Shown here: in pieces, positions 20,617 to 45,578 of the stretch
Layout of the letters: each line of letters starts with the position of its first letter
How positions within the stretch are numbered: position 1 is the first letter of the stretch
NCBI GenBank assembly: GCA_965218435.1
Contig: CBDCKW010000009.1
Coordinates: 1,376,001 to 1,440,000, forward strand
Source: Truepera sp.
Lineage (GTDB): Bacteria > Deinococcota > Deinococci > Deinococcales > Trueperaceae
DNA length: 64,000 bases
Direction of reading: 5' to 3'
The notes under the pieces: model-generated
The model's database searches: none
Seen by the model: only the letters and a program-made list of their open reading frames with translations
What the model was told of the DNA's origin: nothing
Made by a program: the position numbers and the translations under genes

Positions 20617-21180
20617 TCAGCGAATTCCCGGCGGTACCTGGGTCGGCGGCGGCTCCGGTAGGTTGCGCGGTTCAGGGACGCCCTCGAGCCGCTTCACTAC
20701 CCCATTTTCGTTACACCCGACAAAAAACGGGCAGCGCAGACACTCTGACCAGACGCGCGGGTGCAGCTCTTTGGTCTTGTCAAGCAGCCGAAAGCCGCAC
20801 CGCTCAAAAAAGCCGACCGAGTACGTCCAGGCGAACAGCGTCGGCACCCCGATACGCCGCGCCTCGAGTTCACACGCCGCGACCAGCTCACGTCCGACGC
20901 CCTTTGACTGCACCCCCGGCCGCACCGCTAGCCCACGCACCTCGGCAATGTCACCCCAGAGGATATGCAGCGCCCCGCACCCGGCAAAGTGTCCATTTAC
21001 TTCGGCGACAAAAAAGTCGCGCAGGTTTTCAAAGATGTTCTGCATGGGCCGCACCAACATCTTGCCCTGACCCGCCCAGTAGCCGATGGTTTCAAAGATG
21101 TCTACGACATCTTCGGCTTTGGCAGGCCGTACCGTAACTAAACCGAATTTTGCTCTCGGTGCGGTTTCAGTCGTCTCCAC
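20617..21180 (-). CDS. argA: Short-form amino-acid N-acetyltransferase (ArgA-like GNAT)
   Basis: MLVRP..IFENLRDF, GCGALH, AEVRGLAV, WSECLRCP; directly after argH. Confidence 0.75.
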   Translation of the reverse strand: METTETAPRAKFGLVTVRPAKAEDVVDIFETIGYWAGQGKMLVRPMQNIFENLRDFFVAEVNGHFAGCGALHILWGDIAEVRGLAVRPGVQSKGVGRELVAACELEARRIGVPTLFAWTYSVGFFERCGFRLLDKTKELHPRVWSECLRCPFFVGCNENGVVKRLEGVPEPRNLPEPPPTQVPPGIR

Positions 21181-22561
21181 GTAACATCTCCTTGGCCATT
21201 TCTACTTGCATTTCGACCTGACCGAGCGCCGTGCCGCCGTAGCTCGAGCGCACGTTTACGACGGTCTCGAGCTTCAGCACCTCGTATACATCTTCGCTAA
21301 TAAGTTCCGATACCGCCTGCATCTGCCCTAAACTCAGCTCCTGCAAATCTTTACCCTCACGCACCCCGAGCGCCACCAGCTTGCCGACGACCTCGTGCGC
21401 AGCGCGGAAGGGGAGACCTTTTCGGGCAAGATAATCGGCCAAGTCCGTCGCGTTCGAGTAGGCACGTCCGGCCGCGTGATACAACCGTACCTCATTGACC
21501 TTAAGTTTCGGTAGTAGATCAGCCGTCAGCCGCAGGCAGAGCCGCAGCGTATCCGCCGTGTCAAACGCGCCCTCTTTATCTTCTTGCGTGTCTTTATTGT
21601 AGGCGAGCGGCAAACCTTTAAGCGTCGTCAAAAGCCCTAGCAAGTGCCCGTAAACGCGCCCGGTTTTGCCCCTTGTGAGTTCAGACACGTCCGGGTTTTT
21701 CTTTTGCGGCATGATGCTTGAACCTGTCGTATGCGAATCGGGCAGGGTGACAAAGCCGAACTCTTGCGACGACCATAAGATGAGTTCTTCGGAGAGTCTC
21801 GAGAGGTGCATCATCACGAGGCTGGCCGCACTCAAAAACTCGACGACAAAATCGCGGTCGGACACCGCGTCGAGCGAATTGCGGGCGGGCCGGTCAAAGC
21901 CGAGCAGTTCGGCGGTGCGGGTGCGGTCAATCGGAAAACCCGTCCCGGCAAGCGCCCCGGCCCCGAGCGGTGAGACGTTCAGGCGTTTAAGAGAGTCTTG
22001 CAGCCGCTCCGCGTCACGTGAAAACATCTCGAAGTAGGCCAACAGATGATGCGATAAGAGCACGGGTTGGGCAACCTGCAGATGTGTGTACCCCGGCATA
22101 ATAACGCCCAAATGTCTGTCGGCAGCCTCTACGAATGCCATACGAAGGTCGTGCAAAAGTGCAATCAGCGCGTGCGTCTCGTCCCGGAGCCAGAGCCGAA
22201 AGTCGGTCGCTACCTGGTCGTTGCGGCTGCGGGCGGTGTGCAGTTTGCCGCCGACCGGCCCGACGCGCTGTGTCAGGGCGGCCTCGAGGTTCATATGTAC
22301 ATCTTCTAATTCAGTGCGCCAGCTAAACGTCCCGGCTTCAACTTCTTTTCGTAAGTCCTCGAGCCCTTGAACAAGCTGCGCGGCCTCATCCTCGCTCAAA
22401 ATACCGGTTTCACCGAGCATCGTCGCGTGCGCGATCGAGCCCTGGATATCTTGCAGGGCCAGCCGCCGGTCAAAGTTGATCGAGGCGTTGAACTGTTCGA
22501 CCAGTGCGTCGGTGCTCTCAGCAAAGCGTCCGCCCCACATGCGTTTGGTTGGTTTAGTCAT
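21167..22561 (-). CDS. argH: Argininosuccinate lyase
   Basis: WGGRF, HTARSRNDQV, PGYTHLQ, GSSIMPQKKNPD. Confidence 0.96.
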   Translation of the reverse strand: MTKPTKRMWGGRFAESTDALVEQFNASINFDRRLALQDIQGSIAHATMLGETGILSEDEAAQLVQGLEDLRKEVEAGTFSWRTELEDVHMNLEAALTQRVGPVGGKLHTARSRNDQVATDFRLWLRDETHALIALLHDLRMAFVEAADRHLGVIMPGYTHLQVAQPVLLSHHLLAYFEMFSRDAERLQDSLKRLNVSPLGAGALAGTGFPIDRTRTAELLGFDRPARNSLDAVSDRDFVVEFLSAASLVMMHLSRLSEELILWSSQEFGFVTLPDSHTTGSSIMPQKKNPDVSELTRGKTGRVYGHLLGLLTTLKGLPLAYNKDTQEDKEGAFDTADTLRLCLRLTADLLPKLKVNEVRLYHAAGRAYSNATDLADYLARKGLPFRAAHEVVGKLVALGVREGKDLQELSLGQMQAVSELISEDVYEVLKLETVVNVRSSYGGTALGQVEMQVEMAKEMLRGDD

Positions 22562-22569
22562 CTGGTCAT

Positions 22570-23106
22570 CTATTTTTTCGCGAGTTCGTCAATGGTTCCC
22601 AAGATAGTGTCACCCTCAGGGTAAAGGCAGTCTTCCCACGAAGCTACAGCGCCTGAAATGATAACGGCACCATACGCCCTCGGCTCTTCTGGATAAACTC
22701 TATAGCCAGCTGAGCCGTATATTGTGCTGCCGCAGATTGTGTAGGTCACACCTGGGTTATTCGTCAGCTTGATCAAATAATCTCCAAAAACACCTCTTAC
22801 CTGCGGTTTGAGATAAGCCAGGTCGCCATATTTACTCTCTTCATAACCCGTCATCGCGTAGACCTCGCCGTCCAAGCTGACGGTTCCTTCAAAATCGTAA
22901 CGGGTTGAGGTCGTGCTAACCAGACGGCTTTCGGTAGTGATAGGTGGCATCGGCGGATTGACATCGTTGATGTAATCTTCAGGATTTCCAGGATAATACG
23001 TCCCTACAAACGTGCCAATCAGATAAGGCTGAGTATCTATAACTTGGTCGCAGCCCGCTAAACTTGTTACGAACAGAAGAACTAAAAGAGCTTTCAAAAA
23101 GTTCAT
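22570..23106 (-). CDS. Hypothetical lipoprotein inserted in the arg operon
   Basis: Lipobox SLAGC; lower GC; ATG 23106 overlaps the upstream stop. Confidence 0.65.
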   Translation of the reverse strand: MNFLKALLVLLFVTSLAGCDQVIDTQPYLIGTFVGTYYPGNPEDYINDVNPPMPPITTESRLVSTTSTRYDFEGTVSLDGEVYAMTGYEESKYGDLAYLKPQVRGVFGDYLIKLTNNPGVTYTICGSTIYGSAGYRVYPEEPRAYGAVIISGAVASWEDCLYPEGDTILGTIDELAKK

Positions 23107-23324
23107 TTTCTCCACTCGCCACGCAGAAGCCTCTGATATTGCACTCCGTCTATAGTTTTGCCACGCCATAAATCAAATGACTCAGATAGGTCACCTATCC
23201 GGTGAGTATTCAGATATTCGGTCACAGCCTCGCGGATAAGTGCTGTGCTCGAGACCCCTTTTTGCTCACCGAGTTTAGTTAGGGTCTCGAGCTGCTCGTC
23301 AGTCAAATCTACGGCGATTTGCAT
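23103..23324 (-). CDS. Ribbon-helix-helix (CopG/VapB-like) antitoxin without toxin
   Basis: MQIAVDLTDEQ..L..GVSSTALIREAV..YL..FDLW..DGVQYQRLLRGEW. Confidence 0.75.
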   Translation of the reverse strand: MQIAVDLTDEQLETLTKLGEQKGVSSTALIREAVTEYLNTHRIGDLSESFDLWRGKTIDGVQYQRLLRGEWRK

Positions 23325-23337
23325 ACAAATGAGCGTA

Positions 23338-23808
23338 TCATCCCTGCCGCTGCCACACCCCACCGACCCGTTTGGAAAGCTCGAACGGCCTCTCAGCGTC
23401 CTTGGGCCGGTAGCCCATCCGGGTGTAGTAAGGGAGCAAGTCGGTTTGGGTTTCGCTTAGCCTCAGGCGCAACTCGGGGATATTGTGCTGAATGGCGAGG
23501 GCTTCTAAACGTGTCGTCAGCCAGCGCCCGAACCCCTGTCCCCGGTATTCGGGCAGCGTCGCCAACCGCCCGACCTCCCAGCCGTAAGGGGCTTCGTGCC
23601 AACGTAGGGCGCTGATAAAGATTCCCTCACAGACGAAGGTCAGTGCGCCGCCTTCCTCTAACCACGCTGCTATTCGTGCTTCATTTTCAGCAGGGTCATC
23701 CCAGGCTTTTTGGTAAAGCACGGCGAGTGCGTCAGCGTCGGCGTAGGTGGCCCGTTTGAGGTGCGCGGCTTGGGGCTGAGGTTCGGTTGCCACAGGTTGC
23801 GTAATCAT
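23338..23808 (-). CDS. GNAT family N-acetyltransferase
   Basis: [20 protein letters not shown]. Confidence 0.85.
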
Positions 23809-25091
23809 TCGCTGTACTGGGAAATCTTGAGCGGCGGCGTTTTGGTTTCGGCCCCTTGCTGCGCCGCAATTCGCAGCCGGAGCGCGTTCAGTTTGATAAA
23901 CCCGTCGGCGTCGGCTTGGTTGTACACCGTGTCTTCTTCAAAAGTTACGACGTCTTGGCGGTAAAACGAATTGGGCGATTTGCGCCCCGTTAGGGTAACG
24001 CTGCCTTTGTAAAGCTCGAGCCTCGCTGTGCCCGTCACCGGTTTTTGAATGTCGTCCATGAGGTTTTGCAAGGCGACGCGTTCGGGCGCGAACCAGAAAC
24101 CGTTATAGACGATTGAGGCGTATTTGGGCATCAGTTCGTCGCGGAGCTGCATCACTTGTCGGTCTAGTGTCAACGATTCGACCGCTTTGTGCGCGTGAAA
24201 AAGGAGCGTGCCGCCAGGGGTTTCGTAACAGCCTCGAGATTTCATCCCCACAAAGCGGTTCTCGACAATATCCACGCGGCCGATTCCATGTTTGCCGCCT
24301 AAGGCGTTGGCCTTCTCCAAAAGTTCAACCGGCCCTAATGTTTCGCCGTTAATCGCTACCGGATTGCCCGCTTCAAACTCGAGTTCTATGGTCTCAGGCG
24401 TGTTCGGCGCGTCTTGCGGGTCGGTCGTAAGCCGCCACATATCTTTGGGCGGCGCAGCCCACGGGTCCTCTAACACGCCGCCCTCGTACGAGATGTGGTA
24501 CAAATTCGCGTCCATCGAATAGGGCTTTTCTTTCGTAACGCCGACCGGGATGCCGTGCTCGCGAGCGTAGCGCACGCAGTCTTCGCGGCCCCGCAGCGTC
24601 CACTCGCGCCACGGTGCAATCACCTTGATGTCGGGTTTGAGTGCGTAGGCGGAGAGTTCAAACCGTACCTGGTCGTTGCCCTTACCCGTAGCGCCGTGCG
24701 CTACGGCGTCGGCTCCCTCACTTTCGGCAATTTCGACCATCTTTTGCGCGATCAAAGGGCGGGCAAACGAGGTACCGAGCAGATAGTACCCTTCGTAAAG
24801 TGCTCCCGAGCGCAAGACCGGGAAGACGAAATCCTGGACAAACTCACGTTGTAAGTCTTCGGCGTAGGCGCTCACTGCGCCCGTCTGCAAGGCTTTTTCT
24901 TTGGCCTCGGCGACCTCTTCACCCTGGCCGATGTCGGCGGTAAAAGCGACGACTTCAGCGCCGTAGGTATCTTTTAGCCACCGCAAAATAACTGAGGTAT
25001 CGAGGCCACCGGAATACGCGAGGACAACCTTTTTGATCGTGCCTTGGGTTGAGCGGGGATTAGCTTGTGATGAGCTGGGTTGGGCTGACAT
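23805..25091 (-). CDS. argG: Argininosuccinate synthase
   Basis: [40 protein letters not shown]. Confidence 0.97.
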
Positions 25092-25147
25092 TCGGTTCTC
25101 CTAAGTTGTGGTGATTAACGTTGTGGTAATTAGCGGCGAAGCGAGAC

Positions 25148-25180
25148 AAGAAAAAACCTCACCCGAGTTGGGCGTAAGGC
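25148..25180 (-). terminator. Attenuator-type intrinsic terminator in the argG leader
   Basis: Minus strand CCTTACGCCC-AACTC-GGGTGAGG followed by TTTTTTCTT, upstream of the argG RBS. Confidence 0.7.
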
Positions 25181-25205
25181 GGTTGCGCTCGCTTGATAGC
25201 GGGCG

Positions 25206-25241
25206 TTAACGTCGGACGCGGCGGGTAAGGTGTGCACTCAT
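25206..25241 (-). CDS. Putative Arg-rich leader peptide MSAHLTRRVRR
   Basis: 11-codon ORF with 4 Arg in its last 5 codons, 25 nt before the terminator. Confidence 0.65.
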   Translation of the reverse strand: MSAHLTRRVRR

Positions 25242-25261
25242 AATTTTGACCGCAGGTTTAG

Positions 25262-25279
25262 CTTAGATAAATATGCAAA
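25262..25279 (-). promoter_or_regulatory. ARG box (ArgR operator) candidate
   Basis: TTTGCATATTTATCTAAG resembles TGmATAwwTATkCA and lies upstream of the arg operon. Confidence 0.55.
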
Positions 25280-25377
25280 CCGTGCGATAACCTTGCAAAC
25301 TCTAGCATGTCCTTTTGAGAGGGTCAAGCATAGGCGTTTCGTATCGGGGTAAAGGTTAGCTGGGGAGGCGGTCAAAC

Positions 25378-44037: not shown

Positions 44038-44085
44038 ATGTCTAAGCTGTCTTCTCAGCTCGAGCCTCAGCGATGGCGTCTCTGA
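44038..44085 (+). CDS. trpL: Putative trp leader peptide MSKLSSQLEPQRWRL
   Basis: Leaderless TATACT-N5-ATG; single Trp codon near the end; 56 nt upstream of trpE. Confidence 0.6.
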   Translation: MSKLSSQLEPQRWRL

Positions 44086-44141
44086 CCCAAGCTTTATATA
44101 TTGGCGTCACCCTGCTGTTTTCTCGAGCCTGAAAAGGAGAC

Positions 44142-45578
44142 TTGCTTATTACCCCGCTCAAGTTGCCCCGGATTAAACCTGTTTACAAAGAAGTTCTAGC
44201 CGACCTAGAAACCCCGCTGACTGCGTACCTTAAAGTTGCCGGACACCCGAGTTTTCTTTTAGAGAGCGTCGAGCAGGGTGAACGCGTCGCCCGTTATTCG
44301 TTTATCGGCACCGGCGAGCGCCGCCGGATTGAAGCGCGGGGGGACGCGGTGCAGGTCAGCACGCCTGAAGGTGCGGAGAGTTTCGAGAGTGCCGACCCTT
44401 TACGCGTCTTATGGGACCTGACCGTCCGTGACGCCGAACATGATCCCAATTTGCCCGACTTCTGGGCGGGCAGCGTCGGTTACGCGGCCTACGACCTGAT
44501 TCGGCAATACGAAAAGCTGCCGGATACTAATCCTGACGAGTTAGGTATTCCAGACCTACTCTTCATCGAACCCGAAGCCCTGATTATCTTTGACCACCTC
44601 AAGCGGCGTATCTTTTTAGTTGCGCCCGCCGAAGTTGATAATGGCGCGGATGAAGCTAGGGCACACACCCTCATTGAAGGACTTTACGGCAAACTGCGCG
44701 GGCCACTGCCGGGGGTTCCCGGCGACCGGGCGGGCAGGCGCGTGACATTCACGCCGAACGTGACGAAAAAGCAATATATGGACGCCGTGACCAAAGCCGT
44801 TGACTACATTCACGCCGGAGACATCTTTCAAGTCGTGCCGAGCCAGCGTCTGAGCGCCGAGTTGGGCGTCCATCCGTTCGCGCTCTACCGGGCGCTCCGC
44901 GTCGTCAATCCTAGTCCGTACTTAGGCTACTTAGACCTCGGCCCGGTAACTTTAGTGGCGAGCAGCCCTGAAAGCTTGGTGCGGAGTGACGGCTTACGGG
45001 TTGAAACGCTGCCGATTGCCGGAACCCGCAAACGTGGAAAAGATGCCGCCGAAGACGACGCTCTTAAAACCGAACTCTTAGCCGACGCAAAAGAGTGCGC
45101 TGAACACATCATGCTCGTGGATTTGGGCCGTAACGACCTCGGGCGCGTGTGCGAGTTCGGCAGTGTCAAGGTTACCGACCTGATGCGCGTTGAACGTTAC
45201 AGCCACGTCATGCACATCGTCTCGAGCGTTGAGGGGACACTCTCCCAAGACAAAACGCCGCTTGACGCACTCGCCTCAACGTTGCCGATGGGTACCGCTT
45301 CGGGCGCACCCAAAATCCGGGCGATGGAGATTATTGATGAGCTCGAGACCGTCCGCCGTGGTCCCTACGCGGGCGCGTTCGGTTACGTGTCGGTTTCCGG
45401 TGCGATGGACATGGCGCTGACGCTCCGCACGGCGGTGATTACGGGTGGCAAGATTCACCTGCAAGCCGGGGGCGGTGTGGTGGCCGATTCCGACCCGGAG
45501 TATGAATATCAGGAGAGTATGAACAAGTTGGCGGCGCTCGTGCGGGCGGTAGAGTTAGCAACCGAAGGTTTAGCGTAA
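44142..45578 (+). CDS. trpE: Anthranilate synthase component I
   Basis: FLLESVE, GDIFQVV, NPSPY, PIAGTR, EH.MLVDLGRND, SGAPKIRA. Confidence 0.95.
   Translation: MLITPLKLPRIKPVYKEVLADLETPLTAYLKVAGHPSFLLESVEQGERVARYSFIGTGERRRIEARGDAVQVSTPEGAESFESADPLRVLWDLTVRDAEHDPNLPDFWAGSVGYAAYDLIRQYEKLPDTNPDELGIPDLLFIEPEALIIFDHLKRRIFLVAPAEVDNGADEARAHTLIEGLYGKLRGPLPGVPGDRAGRRVTFTPNVTKKQYMDAVTKAVDYIHAGDIFQVVPSQRLSAELGVHPFALYRALRVVNPSPYLGYLDLGPVTLVASSPESLVRSDGLRVETLPIAGTRKRGKDAAEDDALKTELLADAKECAEHIMLVDLGRNDLGRVCEFGSVKVTDLMRVERYSHVMHIVSSVEGTLSQDKTPLDALASTLPMGTASGAPKIRAMEIIDELETVRRGPYAGAFGYVSVSGAMDMALTLRTAVITGGKIHLQAGGGVVADSDPEYEYQESMNKLAALVRAVELATEGLA

Follow-up and report, generated by a model that had tools for sequence, protein, structure and literature searches.

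The argG operon of this Truepera genome is preceded by a short, unannotated upstream open reading frame (uORF) that carries a nearly invariant CGA codon before its stop. We favor, with somewhat better than even confidence, the interpretation that this uORF belongs to a ribosome-dependent transcription attenuator, which would sense charged tRNA-Arg(ICG) by way of a long-range RNA helix and would act downstream of likely ArgR repression. Sequence comparisons indicate that the uORF and the argG leader form a real conserved cis-regulatory element, held by selection and more than a product of chance. Arginine is the textbook case of an amino acid with repressor control of its synthesis and no leader-peptide attenuator. 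A conserved arginine attenuator would fill this gap, in a group with genetically tractable members. If the interpretation is correct, selection has kept one synonymous codon (CGA, decoded by I:A wobble) nearly unchanged from family to family for use as a starvation sensor, and inosine modification of tRNA-Arg is linked to operon control.

In the window (the whole stretch of 64,000 nucleotides analysed), the proposed first controlled gene is argG (argininosuccinate synthase; 23805 to 25091, minus strand), which matches TIGR00032 over the cut-off, starts at ATG 25091 and has a Shine-Dalgarno (SD) sequence, AGGAG, readable at 25098-25102 (minus strand). The genes that follow on the same strand (20617 to 23808) are probably co-transcribed with it: a GNAT-like ORF (23808-23338), then argH (22561-21167) and a short N-acetyltransferase, PRK07757 (21180-20617). 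Between the GNAT-like gene and argH lies a 199-aa ORF (22570-23169, minus strand) with a lipoprotein-like N-terminus and no NCBIfam match. The leader uORF, MSAHLTRRVRR, extends from ATG 25241 to TAA 25206 (minus strand) and contains the Arg run CGC CGC GTC CGA CGT; it begins about 51 nt after the predicted transcription start and lacks an SD. The original prediction had described an ARG-box-like site, the uORF, a small hairpin, a stem with a U-tract and the argG ribosome binding site (RBS), and all of them lie exactly where it placed them on the minus strand. It had missed the promoter, further ARG-box-like sites, the SD-less nature of the uORF and the invariance of CGA. A fusion of uORF and argG by read-through or frameshift was also considered and rejected, because an in-frame TAG precedes argG here and uORF-to-argG distances fall in all frames across relatives.

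Conservation was assessed on 140 argG upstream loci of the order, this genome included, among the matches listed. They fall into families f1 (71 loci), f2 (21), f3 (14), f4 (29) and f5 (5), the first four of which are taken, by inference only, as Trueperaceae, Deinococcaceae, Marinithermaceae and Thermaceae, respectively. The control set comprised 80 argG loci, 78 from other groups and two from inside the group (L057, Meiothermus; L071, Thermus). A uORF was counted if it had an ATG start, 6-26 codons and tandem Arg codons within its last five codons, CGA not being demanded. Conservation of an Arg-rich uORF in relatives, proposed as a check of the original prediction, was indeed found: such a uORF precedes argG in 90 of the 140 order loci, among the matches listed, versus 1 of the 80 controls. 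By family, again among the matches listed, it is present in 55/71 (f1), 20/21 (f2), 9/14 (f3), 3/29 (f4) and 3/5 (f5) loci. Two of 93 automatic uORF picks (L151 and L014) were dropped as non-homologous before structure counts were made.

Several features point to a translated reading frame. Starting from the nucleotide motif alone, which was itself chosen after the data had been seen, the motif lies in the ATG-to-stop frame as CGA in 85 loci, versus 1 and 6 loci in the other frames. The ATG-to-CGA distance ranges from 4 to 18 codons across relatives and changes in whole codons. Otherwise the peptides have little in common, reading xRARRR up to the stop in f1, MQTLTSRR or similar in f2 and MKRRARRLx in f3. 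Speaking against translation, among the matches listed the uORF is without an SD in 80 of 82 loci (an SD is seen in 2/82), and the first AUG is in frame with it in only 47 of 82. Within this genome, argG alone among 3327 called genes is preceded, at a distance of 55-200 nt, by the strict pattern R-x-CGA-R immediately ahead of a stop codon (the pattern having been chosen after the relatives had been seen); the looser CGA-R pattern occurs before 9 of 3327, and no similar uORF was found before argF, carA, argS or argR.

Family f4 contains two further arrangements. The three loci of genus g48 (L193, L203 and L204) carry near-leaderless 23-codon uORFs in which CGA CGA comes early (codons 4-6) and a GC hairpin follows the stop; this variant was missed by the uORF count because the count was anchored to the uORF end. 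The 13 loci of genus g38 (L037, L039, L044, L195, L198-L202 and L225-L228) are without an Arg uORF and share a G/U-rich motif (TTGT ... GTAsTGT ... GCTT ... GAGGTGA) about 90 nt before argG. This motif has little consensus structure, keeps no single reading frame, and is possibly a second control element, protein-bound or of another kind.

The proposed sensor is the CGA at codon 10 (25212-25214, minus strand), as indicated by codon conservation and by the tRNA set. Among the matches listed, 86 of 90 uORFs have CGA as the first codon of the terminal Arg run. In this genome CGA makes up 6.2% of Arg codons, counted over 1800 long ORFs, and 4.1% of first codons in Arg-Arg pairs; in family argG genes it makes up 3.0% of Arg codons. 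The tRNA-Arg set of this genome consists of ACG, CCG, CCT and TCT only; a tRNA-Arg(UCG) pattern was found in 0 of 61 genomes, the ACG control pattern in 56 of 61. Decoding of CGA by an ACG-anticodon tRNA goes through inosine wobble and, as tRNA-Arg(UCG) was not found, CGA must be read here by the ACG tRNA through such I:A pairing. The Arg-rich uORF of the original prediction is conserved, but the sensor looks like one wobble-read CGA by the stop and not like a generic Arg run. In the his leader of Salmonella, ribosomes pass CGA more slowly than CGC or CGU, and CGA de-attenuates more than CGC/CGU pairs (PMC4046918). Two loci depart from the CGA rule and are worth checking as natural mutants or assembly errors: in L155 the uORF ends R-A-R-R with CGG replacing CGA, and in L188 a TGA apparently occupies the CGA position.

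The leader would be transcribed from a sigma-A-type promoter, TTGACC-17-TAGAGT (25299-25327, minus strand; -35 TTGACC at 25327-25322, a TG, -10 TAGAGT at 25304-25299), with a start predicted near 25292 (minus strand). The same promoter form lies upstream of the uORF in 82 of 91 uORF loci among the matches listed. Relative to the predicted start, the uORF begins 38-66 nt downstream in f1 and 31-42 nt downstream in f2; in f3, one f4 genus and two f5 loci it begins 0-4 nt downstream and is near-leaderless. Transcription starts mapped for D. deserti argG lie at +1 (117 reads) and -152 (264 reads; PMC4007540 supplement), the latter inside the -133 to -230 range predicted for f2, taken as Deinococcaceae. 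ARG-box-like sites lie over the -10 and start site (25283-25308; 9.9 bits at 25308-25293 and 3.2 bits at 25298-25283). The 18-mer noted in the original prediction, TTTGCATATTTATCTAAG (25262-25279), contains a 16-mer of 10.7 bits (25278-25263), which is not unique alone, because 457 sites genome-wide exceed 10 bits with the ARG-box position weight matrix (PWM). This PWM was trained on relatives from a seed motif, from which the palindrome TGCATAATTATGCA emerged across relatives. The two best ARG-box-like sites are spaced 20-21 nt in 43 of 90 relatives (among the matches listed), and a genome scan for tandem ARG boxes gave 11 matches that do not include the argG promoter, whose tandem boxes are below the tandem cut-off. 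Sites scored with the same PWM in this genome reach 7.6 bits at argF, 9.5 at carA and 10.4 at argR; the last overlaps the start of the apparently leaderless argR (near 2462771 of the contig, minus strand), which suggests argR autoregulation. As the genome encodes argR and the additional ARG-box-like sites cover the promoter, ArgR binding and control at argG are plausible, in line with the original prediction. In f1 genus g6 (L009, L142, L145, L152 and L167) and in genus g35, the promoter and ARG-box-like sites directly precede argG with no leader uORF, so that these genera have apparently lost the attenuator and kept the operator. In g35, which is taken as Thermus, 0 of 8 loci have such a uORF among the matches listed.

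The structural elements of the leader, all on the minus strand, are as follows. A 5' arm (25222-25231; folding and genus alignment) lies inside uORF codons 4-7, and a hairpin (25186-25205; -9.4 kcal/mol) with two-sided changes in the family alignment directly follows the uORF stop. A middle segment (25170-25181) can pair either with the Arg codons, in a rod, or with a 3' arm (25156-25165; folding and genus alignment), as a local hairpin. The local stem (25179-25157; -11 kcal/mol, z -2.0) was flagged in two analyses. The U-tract (25148-25156, with U6 at 25156-25151) places the predicted termination site near 25150-25148. The minimum free energy (MFE) fold of the whole leader (-32.1 kcal/mol, z -1.95) takes the form of a rod, where a 10-bp helix (25231-25222 with 25165-25156) joins the uORF to the arm preceding the U-tract. 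The consensus fold of the five loci of the genus is the same rod. In these five sequences the long-range helix has 92.3% of cells paired and two two-sided changes, versus 79.5% and none for the local hairpin, a comparison that is not significant alone (52 of 500 shuffles). In all five, a long-range helix of 8-12 bp is followed by a U-tract (6-7 T of 8 after the helix) and 8-9 nt separate the end of the 5' arm from CGA. The distance from the helix end to the argG start is 64 nt here and 35-64 nt in the genus, and the SD lies outside the rod.

Support from the wider family is uneven. An alignment of 27 of the 55 f1 leaders (MAFFT/RNAalifold) gave short consensus helices only; as varying leader lengths limited this consensus, we relied on per-locus folds and duplex swaps. 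In 24 f1 genera, the duplex between a uORF and its own downstream region is stronger than non-cognate duplexes (-19.0 versus -14.4 kcal/mol; permutation p 5e-5, kin not being independent), and the cognate partner is the best one in 7 of 24. This partner specificity is absent in f2 (p 0.81) and f3 (p 0.06). A helix of at least 6 bp is present in 42 of 55 f1 loci, versus about 31 of 55 (maximum 35) after shuffling of the uORF 5' part, and native f1 folds are 3.7 kcal/mol more stable than shuffled ones. At least five T are present at the helix end in only 19 of these 42 helices, including all five genus members, and the output may consequently be translational in some relatives. An Rfam scan gave no match on the leader and two weak ones (E about 4) inside argG.

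These results qualify the layout of the original prediction, which had described a classical leader-peptide attenuator with a GC stem as terminator and, at the same time, suspected an unconventional switching logic. The suspicion was well placed: the arm preceding the U-tract has its conserved partner in the uORF itself, and the predicted pairing of the leader with the terminator 3' arm is present in the MFE fold and better kept in the genus than the local hairpin, which is not the conserved structure. A helix followed by a U-tract, as expected of a terminator, is present in all five genus members and in 19 of 42 family helices. The clean classical antiterminator that the original prediction could not see is likewise absent from our consensus folds, where no separate conserved pairing of the 2:3 type occurs; the alternative pairing amounts to only about -5 kcal/mol and leaves the hairpin undisplaced. 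The uORF:3'-arm helix outdoing the local hairpin, together with the apparent single-CGA sensor, thus makes the layout other than the classical four-segment one.

Under the attenuator model, ArgR-arginine would repress the promoter through the ARG boxes over the -10 and start site, and on transcripts that are made ribosomes would initiate on the uORF without an SD, as frame conservation suggests. When arginine is plentiful, the ribosome would pass CGA-CGT, reach the stop and release; the freed uORF and downstream RNA would then fold into one rod, whose bottom helix (25231-25222/25165-25156) abuts U6, and RNA polymerase would terminate near 25150. When Arg-tRNA is scarce, the ribosome would wait at CGA, for which there is no exact-match tRNA and I:A wobble is needed. 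The waiting ribosome would cover the 5' arm of the rod, acting as the antiterminator itself, and only the weaker local hairpin would remain, allowing transcription of argG-argH.

Folding simulations partly reproduce this behavior. A ribosome with CGA in its A site covers the 5' arm, and in this genome it lowers the pairing force on the 3' arm from -13.4 kcal/mol to values of -7.5 to -8.8 kcal/mol. A drop occurs in 19 of 20 hand-picked loci, though it is partly built in, as the arm is defined by that very pairing. Because the local hairpin keeps the 3' arm paired in all stalled simulations of this genome (P 0.88-0.96), equilibrium folding gives no clean switch. With 10 nt covered upstream of the P site, uORF:arm pairing is 0.02 in the stalled state versus 0.97 at the stop. 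The corresponding values are 0.00 versus 0.08 with 12 nt and 0.00 versus 0.01 with 15 nt; these larger footprints leave the long-range pairing unrestored at the stop, and release from the stop is therefore needed. At the genus level, the stop state comes out stronger in 11-12 of 20 cases and weaker in 4-7. In the simulations, dwelling at CGA would thus disfavor, and run-off favor, the helix at the U-tract whatever the footprint, which is the right sign for a biosynthetic operon.

The same CGA sensor and rod could instead act on translational access to the argG RBS region, on Rho-dependent termination or on mRNA decay. Such outputs would suit the 23 of 42 family helices without a good U-tract and the 24 of 42 that end at most 24 nt from the argG start; the genome encodes rho, its trpE and cysS leaders pair the uORF with the downstream SD region, and speF orf34 is a precedent for a non-intrinsic output. 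In this genus, however, the helix ends 35-64 nt before the start (64 nt here), always at a U-tract and with the SD outside the rod, and we consider these outputs unlikely for this operon. A near-classical scheme would assign the terminator role to the local hairpin; a ribosome held over the final Arg codons would open the hairpin after the stop, whose 3' strand would then pair with the terminator 5' arm as antiterminator. This scheme can draw on the -11 kcal/mol of the local hairpin and on stalled folds of L001-L003, where such pairing appears before the 3' arm is made. At about -5 kcal/mol, though, this antiterminator loses to the hairpin at equilibrium, and the local hairpin has no two-sided changes and is badly preserved in L004 and L005, which makes the scheme distinctly improbable.

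Two other readings dispense with codon sensing. R/K-x-R/K arrest motifs are known, and the nascent peptide might stall the ribosome as a sensor of free arginine, ornithine or citrulline similar to SpeFL or the fungal AAP, or as an R-x-R arrest motif reporting translation stress in general. R-A/V-R-R is well kept in f1, and an Arg-Leu-Arg arrest case is described in PMC8632094. Yet the uORFs differ freely in length and at the N-terminus, the CGA-Arg pair is the only part shared across the order, R-x-R is absent from f2, and conservation bears on a synonymous position that a peptide sensor does not need; we give peptide arrest little credence. It is very improbable that the leader goes untranslated and acts as an RNA or DNA motif or as a constitutive terminator, with CGA kept for pairing or protein binding and arginine control left to ArgR alone. 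Such an element would fit the pairing of the CGA adenine with a U in 35 of 55 f1 folds, the lack of an SD for the uORF and the absence of the uORF from most Thermaceae-like loci (3/29 have one, among the matches listed). Against it, the ATG, the frame and a nearby stop persist as the ATG-to-CGA distance shifts in whole codons, the codon specifies the very amino acid that the pathway makes, and no other gene of this genome has the strict pattern before it. The CGA-sensing transcription attenuator thus remains our preferred reading.

Other genes of this genome have leaders of related design. Upstream of trpE, whose match starts at 44199 of the window, a leaderless uORF encoding MSKLSSQLEPQRWRL (44038-44085, plus strand) has one Trp codon and folds with a distal arm that includes AAGGAG at 44134 (-40.4 kcal/mol); it is a candidate trp leader of the same rod design, perhaps with a translational output. 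Upstream of cysS (contig position 1668486, minus strand; L238), the apparently leaderless uORF MSPFFFNPRCC pairs through its 5' end with the cysS SD region in the MFE fold (-16.1 kcal/mol). As both leaders pair the uORF with a distal arm, the rod design recurs in this genome. Upstream of ilvB (contig position 1024938, plus strand; L237), a leaderless 38-codon uORF rich in Leu, Ile and Val is followed by a strong GC hairpin and U7, and would represent a classical-looking ilv attenuator with a classical terminator.

More tentatively, and with rather less than even confidence, we propose that the order as a whole has an attenuator for arginine biosynthesis whose sensor is one wobble-read CGA codon next to the stop. 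Termination would be decided by whether the ribosome occupies one strand of a long-range terminator helix, with no RNA antiterminator taking that role. Such an attenuator would have begun as a leaderless uORF that was placed behind transcribed ArgR operators at a later stage, the same rod being re-wired between termination and translation outputs in different genera.

In the full-text literature we found no arginine-codon leader before an arginine biosynthesis operon, though subscription papers and some supplements may hold one; the main text of PMC2965389 contains neither "arginine" nor "argG", and argG does not appear in PMC4833913 and its four supplements. If the ribosome itself serves as antiterminator, it would be understandable that searches aimed at four-segment attenuators or at leaderless peptides could overlook this leader. 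In Thermus thermophilus, which belongs to what we take as the same order, the lys leader reportedly uses leader-peptide attenuation, for lysine and not arginine, and ArgR control of argG is said to operate as well. Within the order as we delimit it, D. deserti is predicted to have SD-less short leader peptides before amino-acid genes (PMC4007540, Table S9), but the 14 listed there include none for arginine or argG. They also begin at the transcription start or 1 nt after it, whereas the argG uORF begins 31-66 nt downstream in f1 and f2; only f3 and parts of f4 and f5 have a near-leaderless one.

Compared with the classical attenuators (trpL, hisL, thrL and leuL of E. coli/Salmonella, as presented in PMC4007540), the argG leader shares a short uORF whose codons specify the amino acid that the pathway makes, together with hairpins and a U-tract ahead of a biosynthetic operon and, as in trp (PMC6345581), would combine a repressor with an attenuator. 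It differs in its amino acid, arginine, for which E. coli is described as using a transcription factor only (PMC6345581), in control codons that abut the stop with one wobble-read codon near-invariant, and in the lack of a separate conserved antiterminator, the uORF itself partnering the arm before the U-tract. As modeled, the argG leader therefore functions in the manner of a leader-peptide attenuator, yet it lacks the separate antiterminator that marks the classical family. The Salmonella orf34/SpeFL leader of speF (PMC6386406; see also 10.1101/604074) senses arginine through tandem Arg codons and remodels RNA, but it controls ornithine decarboxylase, is 34 aa long with a conserved peptide domain, is Rho-dependent, worked alike with rare and frequent Arg codons, and favors expression on complete translation, the opposite of what we propose for argG. 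In S. aureus rbfL (PMC13009471), a very short leader, rare Arg codons by the stop pause ribosomes under arginine limitation, but the leader overlaps and blocks the rbf RBS so that stalling represses, the codons are AGA/AGG and the target is a biofilm regulator. Arginine-codon leaders are thus already known for speF and rbf, with other targets and the opposite sign.
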